A DNA stretch of 64,000 bases from Candidatus Eiseniibacteriota bacterium. GTDB taxonomy: Bacteria; Eisenbacteria; RBG-16-71-46; JACRLI01. Below are positions 37,164-57,211 of this stretch, one piece after another (the stretch's first letter is position 1; the number at the start of each line of letters is the position of its first letter). The notes beneath the pieces are model-generated. The model did no database searches. It worked only from the letters and a program-made list of their open reading frames with translations, and was not told where the DNA came from. A program made the translations under genes and the position numbers. The stretch is from the NCBI GenBank assembly GCA_025351485.1, contig JANXVU010000089.1, positions 6,513 through 70,512 of the forward strand, given 5' to 3'.

Positions 37164-37312
37164 ATCCGAGGCATTGTAGGGCCCCCGGGGAGGCCGGTCA
37201 AATGGTGGAGTGGCCCCGGATCGGAGGTTGCAGACGCGGCCGGGAAGGCCCTACACTGCCAATCCAGATTCCGGACCCCAAATGTTCCGATTCCAATCAA
37301 GAGGAGGTCGCC

Positions 37313-40855: not shown

Positions 40856-41742
40856 GCCCGCGGGGCCGGCTCGCGCTGCTGGCGGCCATCGCCCTCGGGC
40901 TGGCCGCCTGCGGCGCATCTCCGCGCGGGGCCTCCGCCCCGAATTCCTCGCCCGCCCGCGTCTCCTCCGACAGCCTGCTCCAGTCGATCGAGGCCAAGGT
41001 CCGCGCGCACGACTACTCCGCGCAGAACGACGCGCGGGGACTCGGCGACGGGGCCTTTCCGCTGCTGGCGCGGCTCGCCACGGACCGCGATCCCGACGCC
41101 CGATCGCTGGCGCTGCTGTGCCTCGAGAGCGCTGGCGGTAGCCGCGGTGGCCGGGTGCTGGGTGCGGCGCTGAACGATTCTTCCGCCGACGTTCGCATGG
41201 TCGCCTCCCAGGCGCTGGGCCGGCGCCCATTCCCGGACGCCCTGCCGTACCTGCTATCCGCCGTACGAACGTCGGCCGATCCCGCGATCCGACGCAACTG
41301 CGCGCTGGCGGCGGGAATGATTCCCGGGGCCAGCGCCTCGAAGCTGCGCGAGAGCAGCCGCGCCGAGAAGGATCCCGATGTGCAAATGGCCCTGGTCCAG
41401 GCGCGCGCGCGCCTTGGCGACGGGGAAGCGCGCCGGGAGTTCCAGGCCGGGCTCACGTCCGCCCAGGGCCAGGTCCGCGTTTTATGGCTGGAACGCTGCA
41501 GGTACGTCGGAGAGCCCTGGGTTCTGTCCCCGCTGGCGCCATGGCTGGACGATACGCACCCCGCGGTGCGCATCGGGGCCGACGGCCTTCCGGGCCCGCA
41601 GTACCTTCGCGTGTGCGACGTGGTGATCAACCTGGCGGCTGAATTAGGGAAGCCCAGGTGGAGTTTCAAGACCGGGCCGGCGAAGAACTATTCGGAGGAA
41701 GAACGTAAGGAAGCCCGGCGGGTCCTGGGCTCCATTCGTTGA
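40852..41742 (+). CDS. HEAT-repeat lipoprotein (paralog of the preceding gene)
   Basis: Signal peptide with lipobox (LALLAAIALGLAACG). HEAT-like repeats (…DPDARSLALLCL…, …SADVRMVASQAL…, …DPAIRRNCALAAG…). ATGA overlap with the upstream gene. Confidence 0.55.
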   Translation: MSPRGRLALLAAIALGLAACGASPRGASAPNSSPARVSSDSLLQSIEAKVRAHDYSAQNDARGLGDGAFPLLARLATDRDPDARSLALLCLESAGGSRGGRVLGAALNDSSADVRMVASQALGRRPFPDALPYLLSAVRTSADPAIRRNCALAAGMIPGASASKLRESSRAEKDPDVQMALVQARARLGDGEARREFQAGLTSAQGQVRVLWLERCRYVGEPWVLSPLAPWLDDTHPAVRIGADGLPGPQYLRVCDVVINLAAELGKPRWSFKTGPAKNYSEEERKEARRVLGSIR

Positions 41743-41843: not shown

Positions 41844-42320
41844 CTACTTCAAAGAAATCGTGAACGCCTTGACGATCTCGTCGAACTGCTCCTCCAGCCG
41901 CGCGAAGGCCGATTCCGGGGCGCTGGCGGTGATGATGAACATCACCGGGTCCTTGTAGACGTACCACTGCGCCTGGCGCACGACCACGTCCTTGGGGTTC
42001 TTCCAGGCGTACTGGACGTAGTTTGCGGAGCGCCCCGCGAGGCTGCGGCGCTCCTTCTTGATCTCCTTGTAGTCGGGCAGCTGGCCCTGCAGATCGAGCA
42101 TCAGTCCCTGCGCGAAGCCTTCCACATCCTTGAGCCCGGGAATATTGTCCTGGGTCACGGCCAGCGAGGGCTGCATGTCCTGGATGGTCTCCGGGAGCGC
42201 CGCCAGGTAGACGGAGCGGTCGGTCCAGCCTTCGGGCAGGGCCATCTTGAAACATGCGCCCCTGAGCTCGGGAATCACGGGCTTGGTGGGCGGGTGCGCG
42301 GGCGCCTTGGCATCGGCCAT
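41844..42320 (-). CDS. DUF1795/DcrB-like protein: candidate Eag-type T6SS effector chaperone
   Basis: About 158 aa. Pattern …VYLAALPE…LAVTQDNIP… …YVQYAWKNP… …FIITASAPESAF… resembles the DUF1795 fold. Located immediately downstream of a PAAR protein that carries hydrophobic segments. Confidence 0.5.
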   Translation of the reverse strand: MADAKAPAHPPTKPVIPELRGACFKMALPEGWTDRSVYLAALPETIQDMQPSLAVTQDNIPGLKDVEGFAQGLMLDLQGQLPDYKEIKKERRSLAGRSANYVQYAWKNPKDVVVRQAQWYVYKDPVMFIITASAPESAFARLEEQFDEIVKAFTISLK

Positions 42321-42330: not shown

Positions 42331-43017
42331 TTAGGACTCGACGGTCCAGGAATCCTTGTCGAGGTCGGTCAGTGTGAGTTCGCAGTTGCCGGCGGGCAGG
42401 CCGAATTCCACCACCATGCCGTCGTTCCGCGAGTGGCCCTTGCGGATCTTGCCGTCGGGCAGTTTCAAGTCGTAGGCCACGGCCACGGCGGGGTCTCCGC
42501 TTGCCAGGGTCAGCTTGGCCTTGAAGAAGTGGCGCTGCATGGGGCAGGGGGGTGGCGGTCCGAGCCCGCCGCCGGCAGCCGCCCCGGCTGTTCCGGCCGC
42601 ACACACCGGGGCCGCGCCCGCCAGGGCGCCGCTCACCGCGCTCGAAGGGATCGCGGCGAGATCCAGGAGCCCCAGCAGAATGGCGACGAGCGCCATGAGC
42701 ATGTCCAGGATGGAAACCCCGATGTCCCCGATCAGGACGGCCGGAAATCCCATCACGATGGTCCCGCCGTGCCCGTGCAGGCTGGTCATGCGGGCGGCCG
42801 GCATGCCGCCGAAGAATACTCCCATGGATCCCATCATGATGGGCGCGGGCGGGCCCGTGGCGCACGCGCACATGCCGCCCACCACGGCCGCAGGCTGGCC
42901 CCCGATCATGACCGTCGGGCACCCCGGCGGCATGACGACGCCGCCCACGTGGGGCACCAGCACGGTGAACATCGGGCACACGTGGGGATCGCCAACTCGA
43001 GCGGCGGGGAATCCCAT
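42331..43017 (-). CDS. PAAR-domain protein with hydrophobic (TM-like) region and small C-terminal domain: candidate T6SS spike-tip/effector
   Basis: PAAR-like repeats (…ARVGDPHVCPM… GCPTVMIGGQPAAVVGGMCAC… GGMPAARMTSLHGHGG… VLIGD). Then a hydrophobic stretch (…SILDMLMALVAILLGLLDLAAIP…) and an about 70 aa C-terminal domain. Confidence 0.65.
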   Translation of the reverse strand: MGFPAARVGDPHVCPMFTVLVPHVGGVVMPPGCPTVMIGGQPAAVVGGMCACATGPPAPIMMGSMGVFFGGMPAARMTSLHGHGGTIVMGFPAVLIGDIGVSILDMLMALVAILLGLLDLAAIPSSAVSGALAGAAPVCAAGTAGAAAGGGLGPPPPCPMQRHFFKAKLTLASGDPAVAVAYDLKLPDGKIRKGHSRNDGMVVEFGLPAGNCELTLTDLDKDSWTVES

Positions 43018-43304
43018 GGGGCGCTTCCTCCGGGTGAGTGCGGGGTCAGGATCGGAAAATTACTTCGCCTAGACTGCACCAAATCGGGCCGGACTGCAAC
43101 GGCGCGTTCGGCCGATTCCGGGGGGCCGGGGCCGGGCAACAGGCGGATCAAAAATAAATCGTCAACCCACCCCCTATATAGAATGATCCCGCGATTTGTC
43201 GCTTGGCAAAGACGGGCCGCTGCCTTACGTTCACCCCCTGTAAAATTGTCCTATATCCAGCCTCGCGGCTGGTGCGTTCGAGCCCGCAACCACGGAGGAG
43301 TATC

Positions 43305-43754
43305 GTGCCGAAGCAGAAATTCATCGGCGCTCAGCACGAGCGAGAAGCGGATCTCACCATGGGGGTGGAGATCCTCGACACGAACAAGACCCTTTTCGTC
43401 GCGGCCATGAATGAGCAGGCCGGAGACAACCCCGAGCCGATCCAGTGCCGGACCATGGGCGAGGTGTTCGACACCTTCAAGCCCAAGGTCGAGATCACCG
43501 TGGAAGGCGAGGACGGAGCCAACTCGGACGCCGAGATCAAGTTCAACCGTGTGGGCGACTTCCTGCCGGAATCCGTCATCGAGCAGTCCCCGGAACTTCG
43601 CGCGCAGCACACCGAGCTCCTGCTGCTCAAGGACCTCATGAACCAGCTGCGCAACAACAAGAGCCTGCGCAAGGCGGTGGACTCTCCCGACCGGGAAGTT
43701 CTCATCAAGGGTATCCAGGCGGCGCGCGCGGCCATCGGCGTGAAGGAGAGCTAG
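43305..43754 (+). CDS. tssB: T6SS contractile sheath small subunit TssB (VipA-like)
   Basis: About 150 aa, GGAGGAG RBS + GTG. Sits immediately upstream of the large sheath subunit. Sequence features are typical of TssB (…KQKFIGAQ…EREADLTMGVEILD…). Confidence 0.75.
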   Translation: MPKQKFIGAQHEREADLTMGVEILDTNKTLFVAAMNEQAGDNPEPIQCRTMGEVFDTFKPKVEITVEGEDGANSDAEIKFNRVGDFLPESVIEQSPELRAQHTELLLLKDLMNQLRNNKSLRKAVDSPDREVLIKGIQAARAAIGVKES

Positions 43755-43757: not shown

Positions 43758-45179
43758 ATGGCAAACGAACAGGAACGCGCGCAAGAGCAGGCCGGAGCGG
43801 CCTACGCGGAACCGGCCAAGCCGGAAGACTTCACCTCGCAGCTCGCGGAGCTCAACGCTCCCAAGGCGGCGGGCAAGGCCGACGCCGCCATCGCGTGGCT
43901 GGGCAAGGCCATGCCGAGCGCTTCGGTGGAGGGCGCCAAGCTTCCGCCCATCGATCTGCTGGACCCGACCAAGAAGAAGCAGTACGAGGACCTGGTCAGG
44001 AACAAGAACTTTTCCGAGACCAAGGACCTGCTCGCCAAGCGGCTGAACGTCTGGAACGGCGCGCTCACGTCCTCCGAGGACCTTGAGACCCTCATCGAGA
44101 ACACCCAGCAGCGGCTGGAGAAGCTCGAGGAGCTGCTGAACAAGAACCTCAAGAAGGCGTTCGAGGTGATCCGCCCGCTGGAGACCAACTACCGCGCCGT
44201 GGACGGGTTCTTCATGAACGCCGCCGTGGAGGCGGGCGACAAGGTCGAGGTGAGCTTCCTGAACGCCTCCGCCGAGCAACTCCTGAACCCCGACGACCGC
44301 TCCATCTTCGAGGAAGGCCTTGCCGGCGCCATCCAGACGCGTTTCCGCGACTGGACGCTGAAGGAGACCTACTCGAACCTGTGCGTGCCGGGCTGGGTCG
44401 GCACGGTCCAGAACATCGACCGGCTGGGAATCCTGGGATCGCAGAACAAGGTCCAGGTGTTCTCGGACGCCGAGAACTACGAGAGCTTCAAGCAGCTCCA
44501 GGACAACCTGGACCAGCGGGCGTTCGAAGGCCTGCGTGGCGCCGGCCTGGAAAAGCAGTACGTCTCCCTGTTCGGCAACTGGCTGCTCGGGCGCAAGAAG
44601 TACGACTGGGAAGAAGACGACCTGTGGCTGCCGCCGTCGGCGCTGATGACCGGCGTGGTCTACAAGACCGACGAGACCAAGGGCATCCAGGAGGCCGCGG
44701 CCGGTTACCGCAAGGGCAAGATCCAGGGCTCGACCGGCGTGCGTTTCCGCGTCGATCGTCCCACCGGCGGCAAGATGCTGTTCCAGTACGGAGTCAGCCC
44801 GGTGGTGGACTGGGACGGCTACCCGATCGCCATGGGCGACGCCAACCTCTCGAGCAAGGAAGGCGTGGACGCTTACCCGCGCATCCGGACCGAGGACTGG
44901 CTGCTCAAGAACGTGTGCCACTACCTGAACAAGCAGGCCTACCAGAACATCACCGACACGTTCCGTTCGGCGGTGAAGGCCGACCTGCACGACTTCCTTT
45001 CCAAGTGCACCGGCCCGGACAGCGAAGTGAAGAGCTTCGACATCCAGGTGCAGGCCACCCCGGAAATGGAAAAGCGGCACGAAGTGGACGTGGTGCTGAC
45101 GGTGAAGTTCCAGAACTCGGTGCGTTCGTTCAACGTGAAGGTCAAGGAGGCCGACGCCCAGGTCCAGCAGGGCGCTTAG
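43758..45179 (+). CDS. tssC: T6SS contractile sheath large subunit TssC (VipB-like)
   Basis: 473 aa with the typical TssC length and conserved C-terminal sheath-domain blocks (…GYPIAMGDANLS…, …DVVLTVKFQNSV…). The tssB-tssC pairing is T6SS-specific. Confidence 0.8.
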   Translation: MANEQERAQEQAGAAYAEPAKPEDFTSQLAELNAPKAAGKADAAIAWLGKAMPSASVEGAKLPPIDLLDPTKKKQYEDLVRNKNFSETKDLLAKRLNVWNGALTSSEDLETLIENTQQRLEKLEELLNKNLKKAFEVIRPLETNYRAVDGFFMNAAVEAGDKVEVSFLNASAEQLLNPDDRSIFEEGLAGAIQTRFRDWTLKETYSNLCVPGWVGTVQNIDRLGILGSQNKVQVFSDAENYESFKQLQDNLDQRAFEGLRGAGLEKQYVSLFGNWLLGRKKYDWEEDDLWLPPSALMTGVVYKTDETKGIQEAAAGYRKGKIQGSTGVRFRVDRPTGGKMLFQYGVSPVVDWDGYPIAMGDANLSSKEGVDAYPRIRTEDWLLKNVCHYLNKQAYQNITDTFRSAVKADLHDFLSKCTGPDSEVKSFDIQVQATPEMEKRHEVDVVLTVKFQNSVRSFNVKVKEADAQVQQGA

Positions 45180-45256: not shown

Positions 45257-45655
45257 ATGGCGCAGGAACCCAAGCTCAAGGTGGATGGAACCGCGGTTCC
45301 CAACCTGCTCTCGGTCTCCTACGGCCTCCGGGCCGGCGTGGACCGTGACGGGCGTCCCACCCGCATGCTCATCTTCGACGGAATCACCATTCGCCGAATC
45401 GGCGATGCCAAGACGACCCTCGCCAACTGGGCGAAGGACCCCAAGGAAAAGAACCGCAAGAGCGGGGAGATCGAGTTCTTCGGGGACGCCGGCAAGGCCA
45501 TCAAGAAACTGACCTGGAAGAACGGGTTCGTGAAGCACTACGACCTCCGTTACAATCCCGAGGCTGACCATGTGGAAGAGACTGTCGTGATCCAGGCCGA
45601 AGAGATCAACTCCGGCGGGATGAAGATCGAATGCCACTGGGCCGACAAGCAATAG
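45257..45655 (+). CDS. hcp: Hcp-like inner tube protein (paralog 1)
   Basis: 132 aa, located between tssC and vgrG. Sequence is β-rich, similar in size to Hcp family members. Assignment rests mainly on size and synteny. Confidence 0.55.
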   Translation: MAQEPKLKVDGTAVPNLLSVSYGLRAGVDRDGRPTRMLIFDGITIRRIGDAKTTLANWAKDPKEKNRKSGEIEFFGDAGKAIKKLTWKNGFVKHYDLRYNPEADHVEETVVIQAEEINSGGMKIECHWADKQ

Positions 45656-45669: not shown

Positions 45670-46089
45670 ATGCCGATTCGTCAAATCAAGGTGGAGATCG
45701 ACGGCAAGCACATTTCCAACGTGCTCGCCGTGGACTACGGCCTGGAAGTGAGCCACGACGCCGACGGCAGCCCGAGCGATGCCCGCCCGCGCCTTGCCCG
45801 CATCTGCGTCACCCGCAAGACCGATGATTCGACGCAGCTGGGGGACTGGGCCTGCAAGCCCTTCCGCGGCCACTTCAAGTCCGGCAAGATCAGCTTCTTC
45901 GCGCCGGACGAAGAGACCAAGGTGCAGTCCACCATGTCATGGACCGATGGGTTCGTGACCCTGTACCGCGAATGGGTGCCGGACGTGCAGACGCACCGCG
46001 GGGATCCGATGGTGGAGTACATCGAGATCTCGGCCCAGAAGATCAAGATCAACGATACGGAAGTGGACGCGGACACCTGGACCACCTAG
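45670..46089 (+). CDS. hcp: Hcp-like inner tube protein (paralog 2, divergent)
   Basis: 139 aa. Shares the N-terminal pattern (…I.V.IDG…VS..YGL…) with paralog 1. GGAGGA RBS. Confidence 0.5.
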   Translation: MPIRQIKVEIDGKHISNVLAVDYGLEVSHDADGSPSDARPRLARICVTRKTDDSTQLGDWACKPFRGHFKSGKISFFAPDEETKVQSTMSWTDGFVTLYREWVPDVQTHRGDPMVEYIEISAQKIKINDTEVDADTWTT

Positions 46090-46189: not shown

Positions 46190-48151
46190 ATGTCAGCGCA
46201 TGCGGATATCGACGTCAAGATCGGCGGCAAGACCGCCGTCGACCTGGGAATCAAGCTCGGGCGGCTGGTGCTGAATGAAGCCCTCGGGGCGCACGCCACG
46301 TTCTCCCTGGAGTGCCACGCGCTGGACGAGGGCCAGGCCGTGCAGGTTTCGGGCAGCCAAGCCAAGCTGGACGACCTGTTCAAGCAGCTGGGCAAGGACC
46401 TGGAGATCACCGTCCTGTCGCCCGACCGAAACACCACCCGCCATTCGCTGCAGTTCGTCGGCCTGGTCACCGACGTGCACAGCCAGCGCCTGCGCGGGGG
46501 CGGCTATACGGTGTTCCTGGACGGCAAGAGCCACACCATCCTGATGGACATGGAAACCCACTACCGGTACGGCCCGCTGGACGACTCTGCCCGCCACCTG
46601 CGCACCTTCCTTGAAGTGATCACCGGCGAGTACGGAACCCTGTGCGCCCTGCAACTCAGCGCCAACCCGGTGGTGGACTACGGCATGCAGTCGGCCGAGA
46701 CCGATTTCAATTTCGTGAACCGCCTGGCTCAGCGCGAAAAGGCGTGGTGCTTCTACGACGGCGTGAAACTCCAGATCACCGACCAGCTCCCGTCCCAGGT
46801 GGTGGATCTGACCATGGGCCCGAACCAGGCCGAGGACGCCCTGGACGCATTCCGCATCCGCACCGCTCTGGCGGTGGGCTCCGTGGGCGTGGCCACCGAG
46901 GACTGGAAGACCGGAACGTTCATGGCGGTCAAGACCGACACCCTGGCGCTGCCGGCGGCCATCCACCCGTGGGCGCAGCAGACCCGCTCGGTGTACGAGG
47001 CCAAGAAGACCCACATCCAGGCCGAGTTCGCCGAGCGGCACATGGCCAGCCAGAGCGAGCTCGAGGGATACCTCACCGCCCGCAAGGCCGCGTGGGCCAG
47101 TCACCTGGTCCAGGTCGAGGGCAACTCGTCCAACGCCGACGTGCGGATCGCGCGCAAGGTCAACCTGACCGCCCTGGGCGTGGGCCAGGCCTCCAAGTAC
47201 GTGGTCTCGAGCGTGTCCCACACCATGGACATCTTCCGGGGCACCTACGAGAACCACTTCGAGGCGTTCCCCGAGGAGGGCGCGACCCCGCGCCAGTCCC
47301 ATCACCGCGAGCAGGCGCTGGAACTGTGCGAAGCCCGGGTGATGACCCAGGGCGACGACGACCACGTGGGCCAGGTGCAGGTGCAGTTCTTCGGCGCCGG
47401 CCAGCGCGGCCAGATGTGGGCCCGGGTGGCCCAGCCCATCGCGGGCAAGGGCGCGGGCATGTTCGTGATCCCCGAGACCGGCGACAGCGTGATGGTCTCG
47501 TTCCTGGACGGCGATCCCAGCCGGCCCGTGGTGGTGGGCAGCGTCTATCGCGGCCAGGCCGCGGGCAAGCCCAAGACCTGGGACGACGTGGACAACGTCG
47601 CCAAGAACACCAAGAAGATCTGGCACACCCGCAGCGGCCACAAGATCGTGTTCGAGGACGACCCGGACGGCAGCAAGACCGACGGGACCATCCTGATCAT
47701 CACCGGCGACGGCAAGAACGAGATCAAGCTCACCGGCAAGGGCGGAACCGAAAAGATCGAGATCCGCACCAAGGGCAACATCGCGATCGGCGCCGACGGT
47801 TCGATCAGCATGAGCGCCGGGGGTGATATCCACCTGGAAGCCGGCGGCGAAATCGGGCTCAAGTCCAAGAAGAAGACCACCGTGGACGCGACCGAGGACG
47901 CGATCGTGAAGTCCAAGAAGAACATCACCTTGAGTGCGACCGAGGACGGCAAGTTCGAGGCCACCAAGAACCTGGAGCTTTCGGCCACGCTGAAGCTGGC
48001 TGCTTCGGGAAAGACGGGCGCCAAGGTGTCCACGCCCGCGCAGCTGGAGGTTTCGGGAACGGCGTCGGCCAAGCTCTCCGGCGGGACCGGTTCGGTCACC
48101 TGCGATCCGGCCGGAGTGACGGCCATGGGCCCGATGATCAAGCTGAACTAG
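46190..48151 (+). CDS. vgrG: VgrG spike protein (gp27/gp5-like, with C-terminal β-helix repeats)
   Basis: Phage baseplate-V/gp5 OB-fold signature (…VIPETGDSVMVSFLDGDPSRPVVVGSVY…). N-terminal gp27-like region. C-terminal repetitive β-helix (…KIEIRTKGNIAIGADGSISMSAGGDIHLEAGGEIGLKSKK…). Confidence 0.85.
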   Translation: MSAHADIDVKIGGKTAVDLGIKLGRLVLNEALGAHATFSLECHALDEGQAVQVSGSQAKLDDLFKQLGKDLEITVLSPDRNTTRHSLQFVGLVTDVHSQRLRGGGYTVFLDGKSHTILMDMETHYRYGPLDDSARHLRTFLEVITGEYGTLCALQLSANPVVDYGMQSAETDFNFVNRLAQREKAWCFYDGVKLQITDQLPSQVVDLTMGPNQAEDALDAFRIRTALAVGSVGVATEDWKTGTFMAVKTDTLALPAAIHPWAQQTRSVYEAKKTHIQAEFAERHMASQSELEGYLTARKAAWASHLVQVEGNSSNADVRIARKVNLTALGVGQASKYVVSSVSHTMDIFRGTYENHFEAFPEEGATPRQSHHREQALELCEARVMTQGDDDHVGQVQVQFFGAGQRGQMWARVAQPIAGKGAGMFVIPETGDSVMVSFLDGDPSRPVVVGSVYRGQAAGKPKTWDDVDNVAKNTKKIWHTRSGHKIVFEDDPDGSKTDGTILIITGDGKNEIKLTGKGGTEKIEIRTKGNIAIGADGSISMSAGGDIHLEAGGEIGLKSKKKTTVDATEDAIVKSKKNITLSATEDGKFEATKNLELSATLKLAASGKTGAKVSTPAQLEVSGTASAKLSGGTGSVTCDPAGVTAMGPMIKLN

Positions 48152-48170: not shown

Positions 48171-49031
48171 ATGGCCCTTCCATTCCCGGTCCGGCGGTCC
48201 ATGTCCGGCGGCGCCGGCGGTTCGGCGCTGCCGCCCCTGCGTCTGCCCTTCACCATCGTGAGCACCGCCTCCAGCGGGCGCGCGCCCGCCGCGGGCCGGC
48301 GCAGCTGGGGCAACCGGCTGGGGCTCTGGTGGACCGATGCCGAGGAGGGCGAACCGGGCGTGGTGGTGACCGGCCTGCTGCCGCACGGGCCCGCATCCGC
48401 GGGCGGCGCGGTCAAGGTTGGCGACCTGGTGGTGGAAGTGGAAGGGGCGCGCGTCACGACCCTGGGAGACATCACCCGTTTTCTGGAAAACCAGGGCCCC
48501 GGACCGCTCCGCATGACCGTCAAGCGCGGCCCGCACGAGGAGCACACGGTGGTGCTGGACGTCCCGCCCGAGCCCGGAGAGGCCGCCGCGTCTGCCGCGG
48601 GGCCCGCCGGGGGCTACTCGGCCCGTGTTCCCACGACCGACCTCCTCGACTCGCTCAAGCGCAACATCGAGTGGATCCTGGGCAACCCGGTGCAGAGCGA
48701 GATCACCCACCCGGGAGTCTCCGCCGATCCCGAATTTGGCTGCCTGGGGGCGGACCTTGAATTCAGCCTGCGCACGGTGGGCCTGTCGGAAATCCGAAAC
48801 GCCATCGTGCAGTGCGAGCCCCGGCTCAAGGAAGTGGAAGTGGAGTCGGCCGAGTTCGAGGTGCGCGAAGAGGGCGAGGTCTCGCTCAAGCCGGGGATCC
48901 GCGTTCACGCCCTGATGTCCGGCACCGGGGAAAAGATCAAGATCGAATTGGAAGTCGCGGGCCTGGCCCGGGCGCGGTTCACCAACCGCCGCCGCACATC
49001 GGTGGAAGACGCGGGACTGGAGGGGCGGTAG
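48171..49031 (+). CDS. tssE: PDZ domain fused to gp25-like baseplate wedge protein (TssE-like)
   Basis: The N-terminal about 140 aa contain a PDZ-like fold (…GVVVTGLLPHGPASAGGAVKVGDLVVEVEGARVTTLGDI…). The C-terminal about 130 aa match the GPW/gp25 family (…LLDSLKRNIEWILGNPVQSEI…AIVQCEPRL…). High GC3 across both parts. Confidence 0.6.
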   Translation: MALPFPVRRSMSGGAGGSALPPLRLPFTIVSTASSGRAPAAGRRSWGNRLGLWWTDAEEGEPGVVVTGLLPHGPASAGGAVKVGDLVVEVEGARVTTLGDITRFLENQGPGPLRMTVKRGPHEEHTVVLDVPPEPGEAAASAAGPAGGYSARVPTTDLLDSLKRNIEWILGNPVQSEITHPGVSADPEFGCLGADLEFSLRTVGLSEIRNAIVQCEPRLKEVEVESAEFEVREEGEVSLKPGIRVHALMSGTGEKIKIELEVAGLARARFTNRRRTSVEDAGLEGR

Positions 49032-50759
49032 ATGGCGAGTGGATCCATGAGCCGAGGATGGGGCTGGCTCAAGCCCGAGGAGCGCGACTTTGAGGCCGTG
49101 CTCCGGCGGCTGCACAAGGAAGCCTCCGAATCCATCCCCGGCCTTTCGCCCGACCCCAAGCAGGCCGACCCGGTGATCGTGATGCTCCTGCGCGCGTTCG
49201 CGCGCGAATACGTGGAGCTCTACCATCTGCTGGACGACTCGGTGGGCATGGCCTACCGAACCCTGGTTTCCCGCCTGGTGGCGTTCCCGCACGCTCCCGA
49301 GCCCGCCACCACCGCCCTGCAGCTGGTGGTGAAGGACGCCGGCGCCAAGGTGCCGATCGACTTCGAGGCCATCTCCTCCCAGCCCGTGATCCTGGCAGGC
49401 AGGCGCAGCGTGCAGGCCCACTTTTCGCCCTACGACGAGGGCGTGGTGTCCAGCTTCGAAGCGGGACCGGTGGCGCTGGTGGAGCCTTCGGGCGTGGCCT
49501 GGCGGATGAGCCTGAACCCCAATGAGACTTCCGCGGGCCGCTGGCAGGCGCCGCCTCGCAACTACGCTTCGCTGTTCCTGGCCCTGGATTCACCCTCGCC
49601 CTCGGCCACCGACCCGGTCACGGTGTTCGTGCACGGGGGCGACCGCGCGGTGCAGCAGTGCCTGTGGTCGCGCTGGGTGATTCCGGCCTCCCAGGGGGGG
49701 CCGGCCATCCGGATCCACGACAACGTGCCGGAGCCGTTCGTGCCGGGGAAGGTGTTCTACGAGGGCGCCCCGTTCGAGCCCCCGATGTTCACCTTCCGCA
49801 GCGACGCGCGGCGCATCCGCAGCCCCTACGAGCCGCAGTTCGTGAAGGTCGGCGGCGAGGCGCTGCTCTCCCAGGCGTGCCCGTTCCCCAGGGAACTGGG
49901 GTCCCCGGGAGTGGCGCTTTCGCAGCCCCACGGCACGCGCCACTGGGTGCGGGTCGACCTGCCGCCCGACGTGGACCTGACGGCGCTGCGGCAGGTGCGC
50001 TTCGCCACCAATGCCGTGCTGGCCGCCAACCGCGAGCTGCGCACCTCGGGCGCGATCAACGTGGACGCCACACCCATCCACACCTGGCTCTTCCCCGAGA
50101 CCGTCGATTTCGATTCGCTGCTGCGCCTGGAACGGGTGATCGACCTGAAGTCGGGGCACCTGTACCAGTCGTCGGACTCGCACGAAGGCCTGGAGTCCCC
50201 GCGCGCCTACCGCCTGGTGGAGTGGCTGGACGGCGAGCGGCGGGCGCTCAAGGTGGAATTGCTGAACCGCGAGGACACTCCGCGGGCGAGCCAGGTGGAA
50301 ATCGTGTACTCGCTCACGCTGGGCACGGCCGCCAACGGGCTGGAGCCGGGCACGATCAGCCAGGTGTTCACGCCGCCCCAGGTGTTTCCGGGTCTCCTGT
50401 CCGTCAATAACCTGGTCCCGGCGATCGGCGGACGCCCGGCGCGCACCGCGGACCTGCAGGAAGACGAACTCCGCGCCGCGCTGCGCCACCGCGGCCGCAC
50501 GGTGGTCGCGAGCGACTACCTGGAGTCCGCGCGCGCGTTCGATCCGGATCGCGTCACGTCCGTTTCCCTGGGCCGGGGCGTGGCCCGTGGCCCGCGGGGG
50601 CTCCGCAGCACGGTGCGCCTGGACGTGGAGCTGAACGCCGCGGCGTTCGTAAGCGCCATGGAGCGCGAGTCGTTCCGTCTGCGCCTCGAAGGCTACCTGC
50701 AAGACCGGTCTGCGATGGGCGAGTGCGTCGAGGTGCGGCTGGCCGGAGGGCCCGCTTGA
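49032..50759 (+). CDS. tssF: Baseplate protein TssF-like (gp6-like)
   Basis: 575 aa. The N-terminal block (…DPVIVMLLRAFAREYVELYHLLDDS…) fits the TssF N-terminal consensus. Position after tssE. Confidence 0.6.
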   Translation: MASGSMSRGWGWLKPEERDFEAVLRRLHKEASESIPGLSPDPKQADPVIVMLLRAFAREYVELYHLLDDSVGMAYRTLVSRLVAFPHAPEPATTALQLVVKDAGAKVPIDFEAISSQPVILAGRRSVQAHFSPYDEGVVSSFEAGPVALVEPSGVAWRMSLNPNETSAGRWQAPPRNYASLFLALDSPSPSATDPVTVFVHGGDRAVQQCLWSRWVIPASQGGPAIRIHDNVPEPFVPGKVFYEGAPFEPPMFTFRSDARRIRSPYEPQFVKVGGEALLSQACPFPRELGSPGVALSQPHGTRHWVRVDLPPDVDLTALRQVRFATNAVLAANRELRTSGAINVDATPIHTWLFPETVDFDSLLRLERVIDLKSGHLYQSSDSHEGLESPRAYRLVEWLDGERRALKVELLNREDTPRASQVEIVYSLTLGTAANGLEPGTISQVFTPPQVFPGLLSVNNLVPAIGGRPARTADLQEDELRAALRHRGRTVVASDYLESARAFDPDRVTSVSLGRGVARGPRGLRSTVRLDVELNAAAFVSAMERESFRLRLEGYLQDRSAMGECVEVRLAGGPA

Positions 50760-51787
50760 CCGCCGCCCTTCAACTGATCATGCCGGACCTGCTGGCCGAG
50801 CGGCCGGGGGATGCGGTGGAGAGTGCGATCCTGTCCCTGGTGGAGATGGGCGCAGACCGCCAGCAGATCGAACTCATCCCGGTGGGCATCTTTCGCCGCT
50901 ACCGCGGCCAGCTGCTGGGCTTCTACCCCGCGCTGGGCGTCGAGGTCCGGCAGGGCGACACCATCCGCCTCTACGTGGCCGAGCGGGGCCTGGCCGACCG
51001 GCTGCCCGAGGGGCTGCTCGCCCCGCTCCCCGACGAGGGCCGGCCCGAAAGCGTGTTCGACACCCAGAACGGCGGGATCATTCCTCCGACCGGGTGGGAG
51101 GCGCCTCCGGATGGGGCGCCGGGGCAGGGCTACGACCCGGAGGAACTGTTCCACCGCCAGCTGGACGGCGGCCGCAAGCTGCTTCGCCTGCTGGACCGGG
51201 CGCTGCGACGGGCCCGCCGGGACGTGATCTTGCAGCGGCAGTCGCTGAAGTTCCTGGTCAATGATCCTCGATTTGCCCGGAACCTCCTGGGCCTCCTGCA
51301 CCTGGAGGCGCTGGATTCGGGGGATGCGGCGGCCGTTTATGCAGCGGCCTCGCTGGCGGGCTTCCAGGACGCCGTGGGCACGCTGGAAGAGGCTGCCGCC
51401 TTCCTGGCCCAGCTGTTCCAGGTGGAGGTGCGGGCCGAGGAGGCCCGCGCGGGAATGCTGCCCATTCCCAAGCCGCTGCACATGAAGCTCGGCGGCCCCA
51501 ATGCCCGGCTGGGGCAGGGCAGCGTGCCGGGACGGAACTTCCGCGACCCCCGGCCGGCGGTCAAGCTGCTCGTGGGCCCCATGGGCGCCGAAAATGCCGC
51601 GCGCCGCTACCGGGACGAGTGGGCCCGGCGCTCGTTCGAAAACGCGGCCGCTGCCATGGTGCCGGCTTCCCGACCTTTCAAGGTGATCTATGACGTGGTC
51701 CGGGAGGAGCGCAAGGCGCGCCCCGGGCTTCTGCCGCACGCGCTGCTGGGGCAGACGATGTACCTGGGACGCCCCCGAACCGCCTGA
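50756..51787 (+). CDS. tssG: Baseplate protein TssG-like
   Basis: About 340 aa, translationally coupled to tssF (candidate TTG overlapping TGA). Assignment rests on size and synteny; sequence is weakly diagnostic. Confidence 0.45.
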   Translation: MTAALQLIMPDLLAERPGDAVESAILSLVEMGADRQQIELIPVGIFRRYRGQLLGFYPALGVEVRQGDTIRLYVAERGLADRLPEGLLAPLPDEGRPESVFDTQNGGIIPPTGWEAPPDGAPGQGYDPEELFHRQLDGGRKLLRLLDRALRRARRDVILQRQSLKFLVNDPRFARNLLGLLHLEALDSGDAAAVYAAASLAGFQDAVGTLEEAAAFLAQLFQVEVRAEEARAGMLPIPKPLHMKLGGPNARLGQGSVPGRNFRDPRPAVKLLVGPMGAENAARRYRDEWARRSFENAAAAMVPASRPFKVIYDVVREERKARPGLLPHALLGQTMYLGRPRTA

Positions 51788-51901
51788 CCGGACGCGCGGG
51801 GCACGAGTCCTGCACAACCGCCGGACGGTGTGGTAGAGTCCTGCTGGAATTGATCTTTCCCCGCCCGGCGGGGACCTAACCCAACGGAGAAATTGAGGCC
51901 C

Positions 51902-53335
51902 ATGCCCTTCGATCGCCGCGGATCCGTGAACTGGCAGGACGGGATGCTCATTGAATCGTCCCACCTCACGGCCGAGACGGAGTTCCTGCGTTCCCTGGCG
52001 GCCCGCTCCGCCCGGACCGCCCTGGGTTCGTTCGGCCTGTACGCCGACCCGGGCGAGACCGCCCCGCTGGACTTGCAAGTAAGCGCCTCCGGCGGGGAGT
52101 GCACGGCCGAGCTGCGCCGCTTCCGTGGATTTTTTCCGGACGGCACCTGGGTGGACTTCGACTCGCCCGAGGCCGGCACGGTGCTCGGCCGCACCATGCT
52201 GGAAGGCTCCGGCCCCAGCTCGGTGGGTGTGTTCCTGTACGCGCACGAGGATGAATTCCTGGGGATCGGCGAGCCCGACCCCGCCGACGACCCGCCGCGC
52301 AGCCCCTACCGGCTTCCCCGCCTGGAGCTCCGGCTCGGCGAGGACCCCAAATGGCCCCGGGGACGCAGCCTGCGCCTGGCCACCGTGCAGGTGAACGGAG
52401 GCGTCGCCGTGATGGATGGCGCGCACGTGCCGCCGTCCGCCACGCTGGCCTCGTGGCCGGCGCTGCGGGAGCTGGGGGAGCGCTACGGCGAATACCTGGA
52501 GCGGTGGCGCCGGCTGGCGATCGGCAACTTCATCACGCTGCTTCCCATCGCCACGGCGCCCGCGGGCGGGCTGGGGCGCGAGATCGCCTACGCCAAGCGC
52601 GAAACGGCTTTCCAGCTGGCGGTCGAGATTTCCCGCAACCAGTCGGCCCAGCCGCTGCTCACCCGGGTGGGATCGCCCGCCGAGTGGTTCGCCTCGGTGC
52701 AGACCAACGCCCGCCTGATCGCGACGCTGCTGGAGCTGAACCGCGACCTGGCCGGAGCCATGCAGGACGGCGCCAATTTTGCAGCGGCCATGGGCACGCT
52801 GCGCGACACCTCCACGTTCGACGTGTACCAGGAATCGCTGCGGGCGATGGTCCAGCAGGTGGAAGTGTTCATCGACGCGGTGGAGACGCTCCTGACCGGT
52901 CTGTTCGAGGCGCGCGAGGGCGAGAAGGACGTGCTGCGCTACCGCGACAAGGAGTACGCGTTCACTCCGTACGCCAAGAGAGTGTACCGGCGCGAGTCCG
53001 ACCGCGAATACCTCGAGATCCAGGGGCTCTCGGCCTCCGAGGTGGAGGACTACGTCGTGCTCATGAAGGGCGGCATCGGCGCGGCGGTACGCAAGTCGCC
53101 GCCCAACACCCACGTGGGGCCCAACGAGCGCTCCACCTGGCCCCAGGCCGACCCGGCGTTCGTCGACCACACCTTCATGGACGGCGCGGCCCTGTTTCAC
53201 CCCCATGGATTCCAGCCGCAGCGCGAGATCAACCGCCTGACCCTTATCTGCATCGGCGGCGGCGACCTCTCGATCTTCGAGCAGGGCGATGACCAGGACG
53301 TGCGAGTGTTCATTCGCAGGAAGGCGAGTTCGTAG
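51902..53335 (+). CDS. tssK: Baseplate protein TssK-like
   Basis: About 477 aa. The N-terminus …VNWQDGMLIESSHL… resembles the TssK 'W.EGM.L.PQHFQ' start. Position after tssG. Confidence 0.55.
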   Translation: MPFDRRGSVNWQDGMLIESSHLTAETEFLRSLAARSARTALGSFGLYADPGETAPLDLQVSASGGECTAELRRFRGFFPDGTWVDFDSPEAGTVLGRTMLEGSGPSSVGVFLYAHEDEFLGIGEPDPADDPPRSPYRLPRLELRLGEDPKWPRGRSLRLATVQVNGGVAVMDGAHVPPSATLASWPALRELGERYGEYLERWRRLAIGNFITLLPIATAPAGGLGREIAYAKRETAFQLAVEISRNQSAQPLLTRVGSPAEWFASVQTNARLIATLLELNRDLAGAMQDGANFAAAMGTLRDTSTFDVYQESLRAMVQQVEVFIDAVETLLTGLFEAREGEKDVLRYRDKEYAFTPYAKRVYRRESDREYLEIQGLSASEVEDYVVLMKGGIGAAVRKSPPNTHVGPNERSTWPQADPAFVDHTFMDGAALFHPHGFQPQREINRLTLICIGGGDLSIFEQGDDQDVRVFIRRKASS

Positions 53336-53343: not shown

Positions 53344-54288
53344 ATGCCCACGCTAGTCGAAAACATCGACAACCTGTTTGCGGAGATCGGCGCGCTCGAA
53401 AAGGGCGGCGCCTTTTCCCCGGATTCGTTCAACCAGAACCTGAAGGGCATCCTTTCGGCGTTCGAGCTGCTCCGCAACCAGCAGGAGCTGGGCTCGATGG
53501 CCGACGACGCCCTGTACACGCGCATCCGCGAGGTGGAGCCCACCGAGTCGCAGCTGCGCTTCCTGACCTCCCACATCCTGGGGATGTACCTGGAAGCGTG
53601 GGCCCACGGACCTTCGGGCTACCGCCGCTCCTACCAGGACCTGCTGCGCTTCCGGCCCGACGACGCGCGAGTGGACGGCGACTTCATCGAGATCGTGCTC
53701 ATGCCGCGCCTGCTGGTGCTGCGCGACCTGGGCGGCCAGGCCGACCTGGGCTACCACCTGTTGATGCACCTGGCCGACTATCTGCAAACGTTCGGCGCTC
53801 CCTCCGGCCTGCCCGCCAGGCCCACGCGCGCCGACCTGGAGGCGATGGGCCCGTCCAGGCTGCTGCTGGGTTTCGCGCGGCGCCGGCTGGCGTTCCCGGG
53901 CAAGCGCCTGGTGGACATGCCGGACGCCTGGGAATACGGGCTGGCCCGCGAAAAGTACTTCGAGTCGCTGCGGGTCCGGGGCAAGAAGCTGCAGCTGGAC
54001 CTGGAAGCCTACCTGCTCCGGCTGGACCTGCTGAGCAAAGTGCCCTGGTGGAAGCGCCTGCTGGATGCCATCGGGCGCTTCTTCCGCGCGATCGGCACGT
54101 GGCTGGGAGCCAGGCTGGAAAAGCTGCCGGCCGGCGGAGTGTTCTGGTCGGCGTTCTGGGTGGTTTTTTCGCTCGCGGTGATGGTGGGCGTGACCCTGCT
54201 GTGGCTCTCCTTCTATGAACATCGCCTGCGGGACTTCCGCGGCAAGGGCCTGAACGCGCAGACGCGCGACATGGAGGTGGTCAAGTGA
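53344..54288 (+). CDS. Cytoplasmic protein with single C-terminal TM anchor: candidate TssL/DotU-like membrane-complex component
   Basis: 314 aa. One predicted TM helix near the C-terminus (…GVFWSAFWVVFSLAVMVGVTLLWLSF…) with a short tail. Topology and position after tssK resemble TssL; there is no sequence-level proof. Confidence 0.35.
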   Translation: MPTLVENIDNLFAEIGALEKGGAFSPDSFNQNLKGILSAFELLRNQQELGSMADDALYTRIREVEPTESQLRFLTSHILGMYLEAWAHGPSGYRRSYQDLLRFRPDDARVDGDFIEIVLMPRLLVLRDLGGQADLGYHLLMHLADYLQTFGAPSGLPARPTRADLEAMGPSRLLLGFARRRLAFPGKRLVDMPDAWEYGLAREKYFESLRVRGKKLQLDLEAYLLRLDLLSKVPWWKRLLDAIGRFFRAIGTWLGARLEKLPAGGVFWSAFWVVFSLAVMVGVTLLWLSFYEHRLRDFRGKGLNAQTRDMEVVK

Positions 54289-56528
54289 GCGGCTTGATTG
54301 GAACCTTCATGGCCAACGCGCAGAATGCCGCCGACACCGCCAAGCAGGCGCGCGAAATGGGCAAGAACGCCAGGAAGACCCAGGACGGGCGGCGCATCTA
54401 CAAGATCGCCTGCCTGGGCCACGCCCGCAGCGGCAAGACCACCTACTGGAGCGTGTTCCACGAGGCCAGCCGCGGCCGCATGGACGAATTCAACATCCAG
54501 ACGGGCGACAACACCACCGCGGCCTACCTGGTGCGGCAGCGGGAAGCCATGCAGTCGGGCGCGTTCTACATCCCCGCGCCCGGCGAAAAACCCGCCGACT
54601 ACGAGCCGGGGTATCCGCCCGAATCCGACCTGCTGGTGAATCTGTTGTTCATGGCGCGCGAAGGCGGCGGCCGCGAGATTCCGATCATGGTGCAGGACTA
54701 TCCGGGACGGGCCATCAGCATCGAGGACACCGATGGGCGCGCCCAGGAAGTGGTGGAATTTCTCAAGGGCGCGGACGGGATCCTGTTCTTCGTGGACGCC
54801 TACTCCACCCGCGAAAGCCCGCACAAACTCACCGAGCAGCTGCTGGGATTCAACTCGCTTCTGAAGCACCTCGAGGACCGGCACGGCCGCATCAACAGGC
54901 CGGTGGGCCTGGTGCTGACCAAGGCGGACATGCTGGACGAGTACCGGCCGGCCAACCCGTCGGAGCTCATCTCGGACGCCGACCAGCGCCGCCGTGGCGA
55001 GATCTACAGCAAGTTCCTGGCGCAGCTCCTGAAGGGCAACGTGTTCGCCCAGGACGCCGCGTGGAAGACCCGCGTGGAAAAGACGCTCACGCGACTTCGC
55101 TCGTTCGCCGACGCGCTGCTCAAGAAGACCCAGGCCACCCAGTTCTTCGTGGTCTCGGCGGTCGGCGACAAGCGCCGGAGGCCCATCGAGCCCGCCGCGG
55201 CCGGGGACAGCATCGCCAACACCAGCATGGCCGCCAGCAGCAGCTCCATGGCGTTTGCCGTGGGGCGCCACGAGACCGGCATGGAAGAGCCGCTGCGCTG
55301 GATGATCCACCAGCTCCTGGTCAAGAACCAGGTGCGCAAGGCCGACCGGCTGCGCAACGGCGCCCTGGCGGCCGCGGCCGTCTACTCGCTCGCCCTGACG
55401 CTTCCGTTCCTGCTCTACCTGGGATGCGCGGTGCCGCGCCTGGAGGCAGACCTGCGCAAGGAGCCGCTGCCGGCCCTGCAGATCCTTAAGGACACCCGGG
55501 GGTTCGAGGAGAACCACCTGGTGAAGCTGTGGTCGGTGATGACCCGCCACCACGATTTCCTGCCGTCCGCGCAGGCCATTCGCACCCGGGTGGCCGACCG
55601 GGTGGTGGAAGAGGGCCGCAACGCGCTCCTGACCGTGCTCAGCCACAACAAGGCACGCGGCGTGAACCCGGACCCGGAAGCTTCGGAGTTCTGCTCCCGG
55701 TGGGGGTTCTTCCTGGAGACCTGCACCCAGGAGCTCCGGGATTCCACGGCCGACTACCGCGACTCGCGGGCCAAGATGTACTGCCTGCGAAAGGTCTTCA
55801 TCCAGGCCGGCACCAACTTCAAGCTGGCCAGCACCAACGACCGGCGCGACGCGTTCCTGAACCTGACGCGCCTCGCCGGCACCCAGTTGTGCATGGAGGA
55901 TACGGTCAAGCTGGCGGCCCAGGCCCTGGCCGACGGCATCACCAAGGACGACCGGATCGCCCCGGCCCCGGTGCCCAGCGCTGCGGCCGGCGGCGGCGGT
56001 GGCGGTGGCGGGCCCTCGCTCAAGGACTCCTACAACACCGCGGTGGCCCAGTTCGGGCCGGGCAGCCCGCCGGAGTCGCGCGTCAGCCTGAAGCTGATTT
56101 CGGACCTGGAAGGCCTGCTCGCCTCGCGCTACCCCCACGACGCCGTGTCGGTGGAGGTGGAAAAACGGATCCACGCCTACCTCTCGGCGGTGGAGAAGTT
56201 CAAGAACGGCACGCCGCTCAAGCTCAAGGTCACGCAGCTGTCCAGCCCGGCGCGGCTCAAGCTTCCGGAAGTCAGCGGGGAGAGGGAGTACCTGCCGGAC
56301 GACGAGATCTCGATCCCTCGCTGGAAGCTGAACAGCAAGGTGCGGTTCGTGTTCTACGCCAACCTGAACTCCGCGCCGCTGGTGCTGGACGACCTGGTGG
56401 GCAAGCAGAACCAGCCGCTGCAGGTGAACCTGCCGGCCAAGGCCGGAGGCAACGTGGTGTTCCAGTTCGAGGTCAGCTCGCCGCCGGTGACGGATGAAAC
56501 CGTGCCGCCGCTGTCGAAGATTCCCTAG
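54285..56528 (+). CDS. P-loop GTPase/NTPase domain membrane protein (747 aa): possible non-canonical TssM-like component
   Basis: Walker A (ACLGHARSGKTTYW) at residue about 40, Walker B-like (ILFFVDA) and NKxD-like (LVLTKAD). One predicted TM at about residue 385 (…AAAVYSLALTLPFLLYLGCAV…) followed by about 350 aa. The GTG start overlaps the upstream stop (GTGA). Confidence 0.55.
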   Translation: MSGLIGTFMANAQNAADTAKQAREMGKNARKTQDGRRIYKIACLGHARSGKTTYWSVFHEASRGRMDEFNIQTGDNTTAAYLVRQREAMQSGAFYIPAPGEKPADYEPGYPPESDLLVNLLFMAREGGGREIPIMVQDYPGRAISIEDTDGRAQEVVEFLKGADGILFFVDAYSTRESPHKLTEQLLGFNSLLKHLEDRHGRINRPVGLVLTKADMLDEYRPANPSELISDADQRRRGEIYSKFLAQLLKGNVFAQDAAWKTRVEKTLTRLRSFADALLKKTQATQFFVVSAVGDKRRRPIEPAAAGDSIANTSMAASSSSMAFAVGRHETGMEEPLRWMIHQLLVKNQVRKADRLRNGALAAAAVYSLALTLPFLLYLGCAVPRLEADLRKEPLPALQILKDTRGFEENHLVKLWSVMTRHHDFLPSAQAIRTRVADRVVEEGRNALLTVLSHNKARGVNPDPEASEFCSRWGFFLETCTQELRDSTADYRDSRAKMYCLRKVFIQAGTNFKLASTNDRRDAFLNLTRLAGTQLCMEDTVKLAAQALADGITKDDRIAPAPVPSAAAGGGGGGGGPSLKDSYNTAVAQFGPGSPPESRVSLKLISDLEGLLASRYPHDAVSVEVEKRIHAYLSAVEKFKNGTPLKLKVTQLSSPARLKLPEVSGEREYLPDDEISIPRWKLNSKVRFVFYANLNSAPLVLDDLVGKQNQPLQVNLPAKAGGNVVFQFEVSSPPVTDETVPPLSKIP

Positions 56529-56581: not shown

Positions 56582-56618
56582 AGAGGAGCCTTCCACCAGG
56601 AAGGCTCCTCTCTTTTTG
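56582..56618 (+). terminator. Rho-independent terminator (13 bp stem AGAGGAGCCTTCC / GGAAGGCTCCTCT, loop ACCA, T-run)
   Basis: Perfect hairpin followed by CTTTTT. It sits 54 nt after the stop of the P-loop protein gene and closes the tssB…cluster transcription unit. Confidence 0.7.
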
Positions 56619-56652
56619 CATCCCGGCGAATACGCCGGGCCGATCCTTGAAA

Positions 56653-57151
56653 CTACCAGCGCGCCGACTTGGTCACTTCGATGTTCAGGTCCGAGCCTTC
56701 GCCCGGCGTGCTGCTGTCGTGCCAGATCAGGAAGCCCAGGAGCGGCGGAAGCAGCAGCTTCTTGATGATGCTCGCGCTCTGGCTCTTGGCGATCCCCGCG
56801 GCCGGGTCGGCCAGGTGGGCCGGCACCACCACGTGCTTGCCCTTGTACATGAACGTGAACTGGGTGACGTCGAACTTGGCTCCGTCCCCCGTCTTTTCGC
56901 CCATCTTCAGCGTGATGAAGCCCGCCACTCCGGCGGCCAGCACCGGGGGGCCCTTGGGGTCGGCCTGGAAGGCCTCCGGCAGGGTGACCGAGATCGTGTC
57001 GCCATTGGAGTTCGAGCCCGAAATTCCGTACCCCAGGCGCACCTTGAAGGAATCGCCTTCGCGCAGCGCGGCGGCGCCGGCAACCACCGACAGGACCGAC
57101 GATGCGGCCAGGGAAACTGCTACCACCAAGCTCAGGGTTTTTCTCATCCAT
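56653..57151 (-). CDS. Secreted hypothetical protein (about 166 aa)
   Basis: Signal peptide (MRKTLSLVVAVSLAASSVLSVVAGAAA) with no lipobox Cys. No recognisable domain. Confidence 0.45.
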
Positions 57152-57211
57152 GCCTCCGGGGTGACGTTCAAAGGCCGCGTGCTCCGGCCGGGTTGACCTT
57201 CCTTGTATCCG

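Follow-up and report, generated by a model that had tools for sequence, protein, structure and literature searches.

Only two type VI secretion system (T6SS) membrane complexes have been characterised: TssJLM of the Pseudomonadota, and TssNQOPR, which belongs to T6SS-iii, has been reported from Bacteroidota only, and has an origin that its own authors called hard to identify (PMC10781749). In the first of these, TssM and TssL contact the baseplate (PMC10781749), the cytoplasmic domain of TssM lies between a transmembrane (TM) hairpin and a third TM helix (TM3) and has no high-resolution structure (PMC6517824), and in Agrobacterium, nucleotide hydrolysis by TssM drives formation of a TssM–TssL–Hcp complex (PMC3346141); in the second, TssN has several TMs and an EccD-like ubiquitin-fold domain (PMC10781749). 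Here, we focus on one gene at the end of a T6SS operon in a 64,000-nucleotide stretch of DNA (the window; all coordinates are window positions) from a Candidatus Eiseniibacteriota bacterium (GenBank assembly GCA_025351485.1, contig JANXVU010000089.1, positions 6,513 to 70,512 of the forward strand). The gene (54285-56528, forward strand) encodes a protein of 747 amino acids (aa) with a GTPase domain, a single TM helix, and a predicted periplasmic region, and this protein is probably the inner-membrane core subunit of a noncanonical T6SS membrane complex—in other words, it would do the work of TssM, to which its cytoplasmic domain is remotely homologous.

Why should a protein that no TssM model recognises be thought to stand in for TssM? 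One reason is its place. Our TssM reference was a set of seven annotated TssM/TssL pairs from alpha-, beta-, and gammaproteobacterial plasmids (L087-L093), and in all seven of these canonical loci, the gene order is TssK, TssL, TssM. The window gene is last in its operon and coupled to the gene that follows TssK, which mirrors that order, and among the window open reading frames (ORFs) that were scanned with Pfam or NCBIfam, no TssM/IcmF, DotU/TssL, or TssJ model found a match; both observations favour a TssM-replacing role. The IcmF-related_N (PF14331), IcmF-related, IcmF_C, and NCBIfam TssM models matched neither the whole protein nor its halves at E up to 10, and a scan equally permissive of the two halves and of the 314-aa product of the preceding gene gave no TssM/IcmF or DotU/TssL match, the controls (Escherichia coli TssM and DotU) scoring 2.5e-23 (PF14331) and 2.6e-26. 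The TssK-like gene is itself a weak match to NCBIfam TssK (E 5.8e-6, under the curated cut-off).

The same place is kept among relatives. Full-length relatives are few: only seven (39-100% identity) were found among 5.8 billion proteins, and a search with a 39-sequence alignment, its reach limited by the word index, returned the same seven close relatives only. Neither the window protein nor protein P0001 was matched when contigs were looked up by exact sequence. Synteny is retained among them at 39-51% identity, and four closer contexts agree on the order Hcp, Hcp, VgrG, PDZ-TssE, TssF, TssG, TssK, a protein of ∼320 aa, GTPase. When 1.84 billion representatives were searched exhaustively with a profile, 64 matched, ∼40 of which have a length of 620-840 aa and the layout of the window protein (Walker A around residue 40, TKAD around 206, one TM around 340), the matches to distant members covering only the N-terminal ∼340 residues, and a DNA-level metagenome scan with this distant branch found 80 loci. 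When the T6SS proteins of the window were compared with those 80 loci by tblastn, TssK lay directly upstream, across a slot of 1.0-1.5 kb, in 46 of the 46 loci with at least 3 kb of upstream sequence, and TssC, Hcp, VgrG, and TssF were present in 28 of the 28 with at least 9.8 kb. Every T6SS match was on the same strand, in loci of 38-67% GC. That is, among loci with a flank long enough to tell, we found no homolog outside a T6SS locus, and it is because full-length homologs sit in such loci that a core T6SS role for the family is favoured. Clustering every ORF of the distant loci defined a conserved core of TssB, TssC, Hcp, VgrG, TssE, TssF, TssG, and TssK plus three further families: one of ∼309 aa (68 loci), the GTPase-TM family (66 loci), and one of ∼176 aa (52 loci).

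Clustered at 90% identity, the distant branch falls into at least 258 groups. Where its hosts are named, most are Zixibacteria (FCB group), although candidate division GN15 and Candidatus Deferrimicrobium occur too, and public annotations call the family nothing more than a “GTPase domain-containing,” “hypothetical,” or “SAR1 family” protein. The sole species-representative genome with a relative is a metagenome-assembled genome labelled Candidatus Saccharimonadales; its contig (L005, DATKKS010000117.1) agrees with L004 in length and tblastn profile, and the two are apparently identical. Because that contig has 73% GC and a diderm-type T6SS, the label is probably a binning error.

The other reason is the GTPase domain. 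Profile–profile comparison with hhalign matched the whole family to TssM (95.6%, E 1.2e-8, 133 columns), the family N-domain to the TssM cytoplasmic domain (94.7%, E 5.9e-8, 238 columns), and an independent Zixibacteria N-domain profile of 116 sequences to that same domain (92.1%, E 6.3e-7, 238 columns). Wrong-domain cross-controls stayed at 0.1-1.1% (E 0.05-0.77), and H-Ras reached 21% (E 1e-3) against TssM and 5% (E 7e-3) against the family. In the aligned signatures, IPVGLVITKADxLxGF of the family stands opposite PVYLVxTKCDLIxGF of TssM and FFVSSTG opposite YFTSxTQ. TssMs that retain their motifs have GxxGxGKT at ∼130-145, DTAG at ∼180-195, TK[AC]D at ∼262-279, and TM3 at ∼450-470; this order of G1, G3, G4, and TM is common to them and the window protein, as is a long helical insert after G4. 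These comparisons show homology of the GTPase domain with the cytoplasmic NTPase domain of TssM at the level of the clade, since DO-GTPases match TssM equally.

DO-GTPases (PF19975, PF19993) were presented by Kaur et al. in 2020 as the GTPases of GTPase-centric conflict systems; they have a conserved glutamate in Walker B, ∼13% of them have TM segments, and the paper that defined them mentions neither IcmF nor TssM (PMC7159879). Against hhalign profiles, soluble DO-GTPase1/2 proteins of ∼290 aa (Pfam-confirmed, P0060-P0072) match the family of the window protein at 99.9% (E 1.9e-31); their match to the cytoplasmic NTPase domain of TssM reaches 93.9% (E 1.6e-7). The family shares with them a GH..GKT P-loop, TKxD, and the G3/Walker B box, which is DYxG in the family (the Asp nearly invariant) and DYRG in the soluble controls, where TssM has DTAG. 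What the profiles support is one clade made up of the window GTPase, the DO-GTPases, and the TssM/IcmF NTPase, apart from Ras-like GTPases, in which the window protein is nearer to the DO-GTPases. One of the soluble DO-GTPases (P0065) has a weak Pfam match to IcmF-related_N.

Might the gene, then, be a conflict or defence module of the DO-GTPase kind, or else encode T6SS cargo or an immunity protein, its place beside T6SS genes being incidental? Its Pfam DO-GTPase2 score (30.9 bits) lies above the gathering cut-off (27), its N-domain matches bona fide soluble DO-GTPases at 99.9%, and its G3 box is like theirs; most distant members of the family, however, fall below that cut-off (P0014 at 22.3 bits, P0022 at 21.7, P0055 at 16.0). 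DO-GTPases come with a GAP1 partner and variable effectors, often as paralogous pairs with N-terminal Zn-ribbons, and such TM segments as they have are N-terminal, whereas in this family the T6SS context is fixed, the TM comes after the GTPase, the periplasmic domain is large, and GAP1 is missing. Around the window gene, we found no GAP1 partner, paralogous GTPase pair, Zn-ribbon, or variable effector gene, the neighbours being TssK, the tail-anchored protein, and a secreted protein without a Pfam match; PADLOC returned no match. Cargo genes differ among the loci, but this gene does not, and its T6SS synteny is invariant in hosts whose GC spans 0.38-0.67. The reading as a defence or cargo gene is thereby largely refuted, and we regard it as very improbable.

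There remains the simplest of doubts, which is that long spurious ORFs are common in high-GC genomes (104 ORFs of at least 80 aa are listed in 24 kb here) and that this one might be such an artefact or a decaying pseudogene. It is a real gene. The ORF runs its full 747 codons without an internal stop, just as a preliminary description of the stretch had it, and its GC by codon position (GC1 0.65, GC2 0.45, GC3 0.93) fits what a real gene should show in a genome of ∼68% GC. Full-length homologs with conserved motifs extend down to ∼20% identity, and AlphaFold2 gives a confident model (mean predicted local distance difference test score, pLDDT, 87.5). The GTG start shares the tetranucleotide GTGA with the TGA stop of the upstream ORF and is preceded by the Shine-Dalgarno-like GGAGGTGG, an arrangement of translational coupling, as the preliminary description had stated; homologs begin at the identical position (MSxFIG...), which supports this start codon, and an overlap of 4 nt or 1 nt at the same junction is kept in loci L001, L002, and L004. 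A hairpin with a run of T follows the stop, and the next genes are convergent, which is why we place the gene last in the operon. The artefact reading is refuted, and we give it practically no weight.

The architecture was read from the 39-sequence alignment (members 15-22% identical to the window protein), in which conservation was scored and from which the AlphaFold2 model was built. The domain has the G1-G5 motifs and Ras-like fold of the TRAFAC class, and G4 is separated from G5 by a long helical insert. G45, G50, and K51 of G1, G141 of G3, K213 and D215 of G4, and S291 of G5 are invariant and T78 of G2 and D138 nearly so, the pattern to be expected of an active, guanine-specific TRAFAC GTPase. 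The preliminary description had called this domain a Ras/dynamin-like NTPase with GHARSGKTT and TKAD; both motifs are there, and it is a P-loop GTPase, but the dynamin part does not hold and was rejected, the nearest folds in Foldseek being G-alpha, SR-beta, Arf/Arl, and RagA-like structures (E 1e-5 to 1e-3).

No hydrophobic segment precedes the GTPase, as had been stated at the outset, and in none of 63 family members is Walker A preceded by a TM. One conserved TM was found, and it is the only one; it had been placed at about residue 385 and in fact occupies residues 361-383, within a single continuous helix (334-391) of the model. We infer an N-in/C-out topology for three reasons: the net charges flanking the TM (+4 before it, 0 after it), the four Cys after it (470, 480, 500, 536, all in the helical domain) that are invariant among close homologs, and the Ig-like insert that distant homologs carry at the poly-Gly site. 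The portion after the TM is 364 residues long (∼350 had been the estimate, with the poly-Gly included) and consists of a helical domain, the Gly8 linker, which is disordered in the model, and a β-sandwich; it ends in a Pro-rich tail in which P741 is nearly invariant. This post-TM region is homologous between the window subfamily and the Zixibacteria subfamily. In three homologs of 807-808 aa (P0005-P0007), an Ig/PKD-like insert of ∼60 aa replaces Gly8 (alignment columns ∼575-640; pattern GGTPPY...W.GPxGTGPFAG...PGxYTxxVTDAAGAQxEATC), which suggests that the chain tolerates domain insertion at that point.

How like TssM is such a protein? Its order of parts (NTPase, TM, predicted periplasmic helical domain, C-terminal β domain) is the order found in TssM once the first TM hairpin of TssM has been passed, and the genes of both proteins follow those for TssK and a tail-anchored partner. 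The hairpin itself, which gives TssM three TMs in total, is absent from the window protein and from all 63 family members, its place being taken by an N-terminal helix that is not hydrophobic. The window protein is ∼35% shorter (747 vs. 1133-1203 aa, so that the TssMs retrieved are 1.52-1.61 times its length, in keeping with the initial estimate of ∼50%), its periplasmic region is half the size of that of TssM, without a significant sequence or fold match to it, and unlike TssJLM, it is accompanied by neither a TssJ lipoprotein nor a DotU-type TssL. A Foldseek search with model 1 put the TssM periplasmic core on top, although not significantly; the Foldseek match to the TssM C-terminal domain is weak and likewise not significant, and a profile search against Protein Data Bank sequences gave only a chance match to TFIIB (E 0.6).

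Several caveats attach to the reading as a TssM equivalent, and they should be taken together. The periplasmic region gives no more than background against the TssM periplasmic domain in hhalign, even with the 116-sequence profile; the GTPase domain is nearer to DO-GTPases than to TssM; the 314-aa partner has no DotU match in Pfam, and its family scores 0.1% (background) against TssL/DotU; and the anchoring role is one that we infer, along with the baseplate docking, the GTP-dependent gating, and the periplasmic conduit formed with a partner. Set against them are the strict T6SS synteny, the TM, the homology of the NTPase, and the TssM-like order of domains, and on these grounds, the proposal of a minimal or alternative TssM analogue, which the preliminary description put forward, seems to us supported.

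If that proposal is right, one can imagine how the protein would work. Made in coupled translation with its 314-aa tail-anchored partner, it would insert in the inner membrane with the GTPase in the cytoplasm and ∼364 residues in the periplasm. The GTPase and the cytoplasmic domain of the partner (∼265 aa) would form a docking site for the TssK/TssG baseplate, a suggestion made by analogy with the baseplate contacts of TssM and TssL. GTP binding and hydrolysis would gate or drive assembly, as nucleotide use by TssM does in Agrobacterium, and the helical domain and β-sandwich would oligomerise across the periplasm, probably with the ∼172-aa secreted protein in a TssJ-like role.

The main rival to this picture, and one that does not exclude a structural role, makes the protein a transmembrane regulatory GTPase switch and not a structural anchor: the periplasmic domain would act as a sensor of signals from the envelope or from a neighbouring cell, the GTPase would license assembly or firing, and other proteins would form the channel. 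Much here has the look of a switch. The periplasmic region is fast-evolving and has variable inserts, as a sensor might; the complete and conserved G1-G5 set with a guanine-specific TKxD is typical of switch GTPases; the closest relatives, the DO-GTPases, are proposed switches (PMC7159879); FHA, PP2C, and kinase genes occur near related loci; and CsgG-like and TPR envelope proteins, downstream in 22-23 loci, could be the structural part. Those CsgG-like genes, however, have no homolog in the window, and the operon holds no other conserved candidate for an inner-membrane core, its only conserved envelope-directed genes being those for the GTPase, the 314-aa protein, and the ∼172-aa protein. The fixed position after TssK, next to a coupled tail-anchored partner, is again that of TssK–TssL–TssM, and the two roles are compatible in any case, TssM being both structural and nucleotide-dependent (PMC3346141). 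A switch without a structural part is thus an unlikely reading, although one to be kept in mind, and a TssM-like anchor remains the reading that we prefer.

What of the partners of this anchor? The 314-aa protein had been called TssL-like, and that holds for topology and gene position only: like TssL/DotU, it is a tail-anchored inner-membrane protein with a cytoplasmic N-domain, encoded between TssK and a TssM-like gene, but it lacks a periplasmic peptidoglycan-binding extension, and homology to DotU is not detectable. Each of the 68 members of its family has just one TM, at the C-terminal end, and the chain goes on for a median of 27 residues beyond it. The ∼172-aa secreted protein, encoded convergently just after the terminator (its true start is likely the ATG at codon 9 of the ORF), is a candidate for the TssJ-like periplasmic partner; TssJ itself was not found, and the candidate has no lipobox. 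It aligns with the products of L001 11791-12291 (-) and L002 8134-8649 (-), and in hhalign, it matches the ∼176-aa family of the 52 distant loci over its full length (79.8%, E 1.5e-5), of which it is probably a distant homolog. In those loci, the ∼176-aa gene starts ∼31 nt after the GTPase gene. A β-rich secreted protein of ∼170 aa without a Pfam match in fact always adjoins the GTPase gene (also in L006, 12255-12779, +), on the same strand in the 52 distant loci and inverted in the window subfamily.

The rest of the machine resembles T6SS-iii. The TssC (PF17541) and Hcp (PF17642) of the window are of the T6SS-iii type, a membrane-complex gene whose product contacts the baseplate (here by our proposal) adjoins TssK in both systems, and the main-branch hosts, the Zixibacteria, are in the FCB group, as are the Bacteroidota. 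What follows TssK, however, is a single-TM tail-anchored protein and then a GTPase-TM protein, which are set apart from TssN as TssN has been described; no TssN-type multi-TM protein with a ubiquitin-like domain was found next to TssK, the protein there having its one C-terminal TM throughout the family. Our literature search found no description of a T6SS subtype with a GTPase anchor, of a T6SS in Zixibacteria, or of a link between DO-GTPases and IcmF, and the T6SS class that carries this gene is apparently undescribed.

One may go further and suppose that the GTPase-TM protein, the ∼310-aa tail-anchored protein, and the ∼175-aa secreted protein make up a third type of T6SS membrane complex, in a class that is found mainly in Zixibacteria and some other uncultivated lineages and in which the tail is T6SS-iii-like and the anchor has a GTPase homologous to the one in TssM. 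We offer this tentatively, at somewhat below an even chance. If it is true, a GTPase anchor of the TssM type would already have existed before T6SS-i and T6SS-iii diverged, TssNQOPR would have replaced it later, and a single ancestor would have given rise both to the TssM NTPase and to the DO-GTPases of conflict systems. A Bacteroidota-type tail joined to a TssM-related anchor could be an evolutionary bridge, and it allows ideas on how the membrane complex arose to be tested by comparison. With its single TM, its compact periplasmic part, and its textbook G1-G5 motifs, the protein is also a simpler kind of TssM-like molecule and could be a tractable model for the role of nucleotide binding in TssM. 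Standard T6SS detection models, meanwhile, do not pick up the envelope components of this system, which occurs in hundreds of environmental genomes.

Table 1. Features of the T6SS operon and of the GTPase-TM gene, in window positions
Feature	Position	Strand	Basis
ClpV/TssH-type double AAA+ ATPase, same cluster	34656-37163	-	
TssB	43203-43754	+	Pfam/NCBIfam
TssC (PF17541, Bacteroidota-type model)	43758-45179	+	Pfam/NCBIfam
Hcp, two genes (PF17642)	45257-45655 and 45670-46089	+	Pfam/NCBIfam
VgrG	46190-48151	+	Pfam/NCBIfam
PDZ-TssE (PDZ-gp25 fusion)	48171-49031	+	Pfam/NCBIfam
TssF-like	49032-50759	+	Pfam/NCBIfam
TssG	50723-51787	+	Pfam/NCBIfam
TssK-like baseplate gene, directly 5' of the 314-aa/GTPase pair	51893-53335	+	NCBIfam TssK
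314-aa tail-anchored inner-membrane protein, TM 270-288	53344-54288	+	Single C-terminal TM in 68 of 68 family members
Shine-Dalgarno-like GGAGGTGG (54273-54280) and GTGA start/stop overlap (translational coupling)	54273-54288	+	
GTPase-TM-periplasmic protein, 747 aa, last gene of the T6SS operon	54285-56528	+	GC3, homologs
N-terminal helix, residues 2-27, Lys/Arg/Gln/Ala-rich, not hydrophobic	54288-54365	+	AlphaFold2 model 2
TRAFAC GTPase domain, residues 39-330	54399-55274	+	Motifs, AlphaFold2 pLDDT >90, Pfam DO-GTPase2 E 2.7e-7, hhalign
G1 (Walker A) GHARSGKTT, residues 45-53	54417-54443	+	
G2, T78			
G3 DYPG, residues 138-141	54696-54707	+	
G4 TKAD, residues 212-215	54918-54929	+	
G5 SAV, residues 291-293	55155-55163	+	
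Sole TM helix, residues 361-383, conserved LPF..YLGC, predicted N-in/C-out	55365-55433	+	
Predicted periplasmic helical domain, residues 397-557	55473-55955	+	AlphaFold2, pLDDT ∼80-95
Poly-Gly (Gly8) linker, residues 569-576	55989-56012	+	
Helices 579-641, β-sandwich 643-732, conserved Pro-rich tail 733-747	56019-56525	+	AlphaFold2, alignment
Hairpin and T-run, intrinsic-terminator-like, 13 bp, 8 GC pairs, closes the operon	56582-56621	+	
Convergent 172-aa secreted protein, signal peptide, no lipobox	56653-57171	-	Conserved neighbour

A few observations about the surrounding genes deserve mention. The PDZ domain fused to the N terminus of the gp25-like TssE is kept in L001 (3079-3930) and L004 (3850-4713), the Zixibacteria-branch loci having a plain TssE of ∼124-128 aa in its place; we know of no described PDZ-TssE baseplate wedge. 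ClpV, which in some distant loci is directly upstream of TssB, is adjoined in the window by a gene (32732-34663, -) whose product joins a protein kinase domain to one of the FGE-sulfatase (formylglycine-generating-enzyme-like) type and may regulate the cluster. An AvrRpt2-like Peptidase_C70 (37106-37753, +) and a PAAR protein with a C-terminal extension beside a DcrB-like protein (41844-42320 and 42331-43017, both -) probably belong to the cargo of this T6SS, as effectors, adaptors, or immunity proteins. Two overlapping ORFs with HEAT repeats occupy 40088-41742 (+); the second has a lipobox-like LGLAAC inside a hydrophobic stretch at ORF residues 54-72, and its true start may lie downstream, making its product a lipoprotein.

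Downstream of the GTPase gene, L001 (12377-21724) and L002 (8686-18055) encode a PP2C and three FHA proteins, one of which is fused to an SLT lytic transglycosylase; also encoded there are a CsgG-like/TPR protein, another TPR protein, and one of ∼400 aa. Clusters of the CsgG-like protein and of the 400-aa protein turn up again in 22-23 distant loci, the window having a homolog of neither. Genes of this set may encode regulators that act by threonine phosphorylation and components of the outer envelope. Finally, 24 distant loci, including L006 (15560-16969, -), have in common a leucine-rich-repeat protein of ∼470 aa, the gene for which lies ∼4 kb downstream and on the opposite strand.

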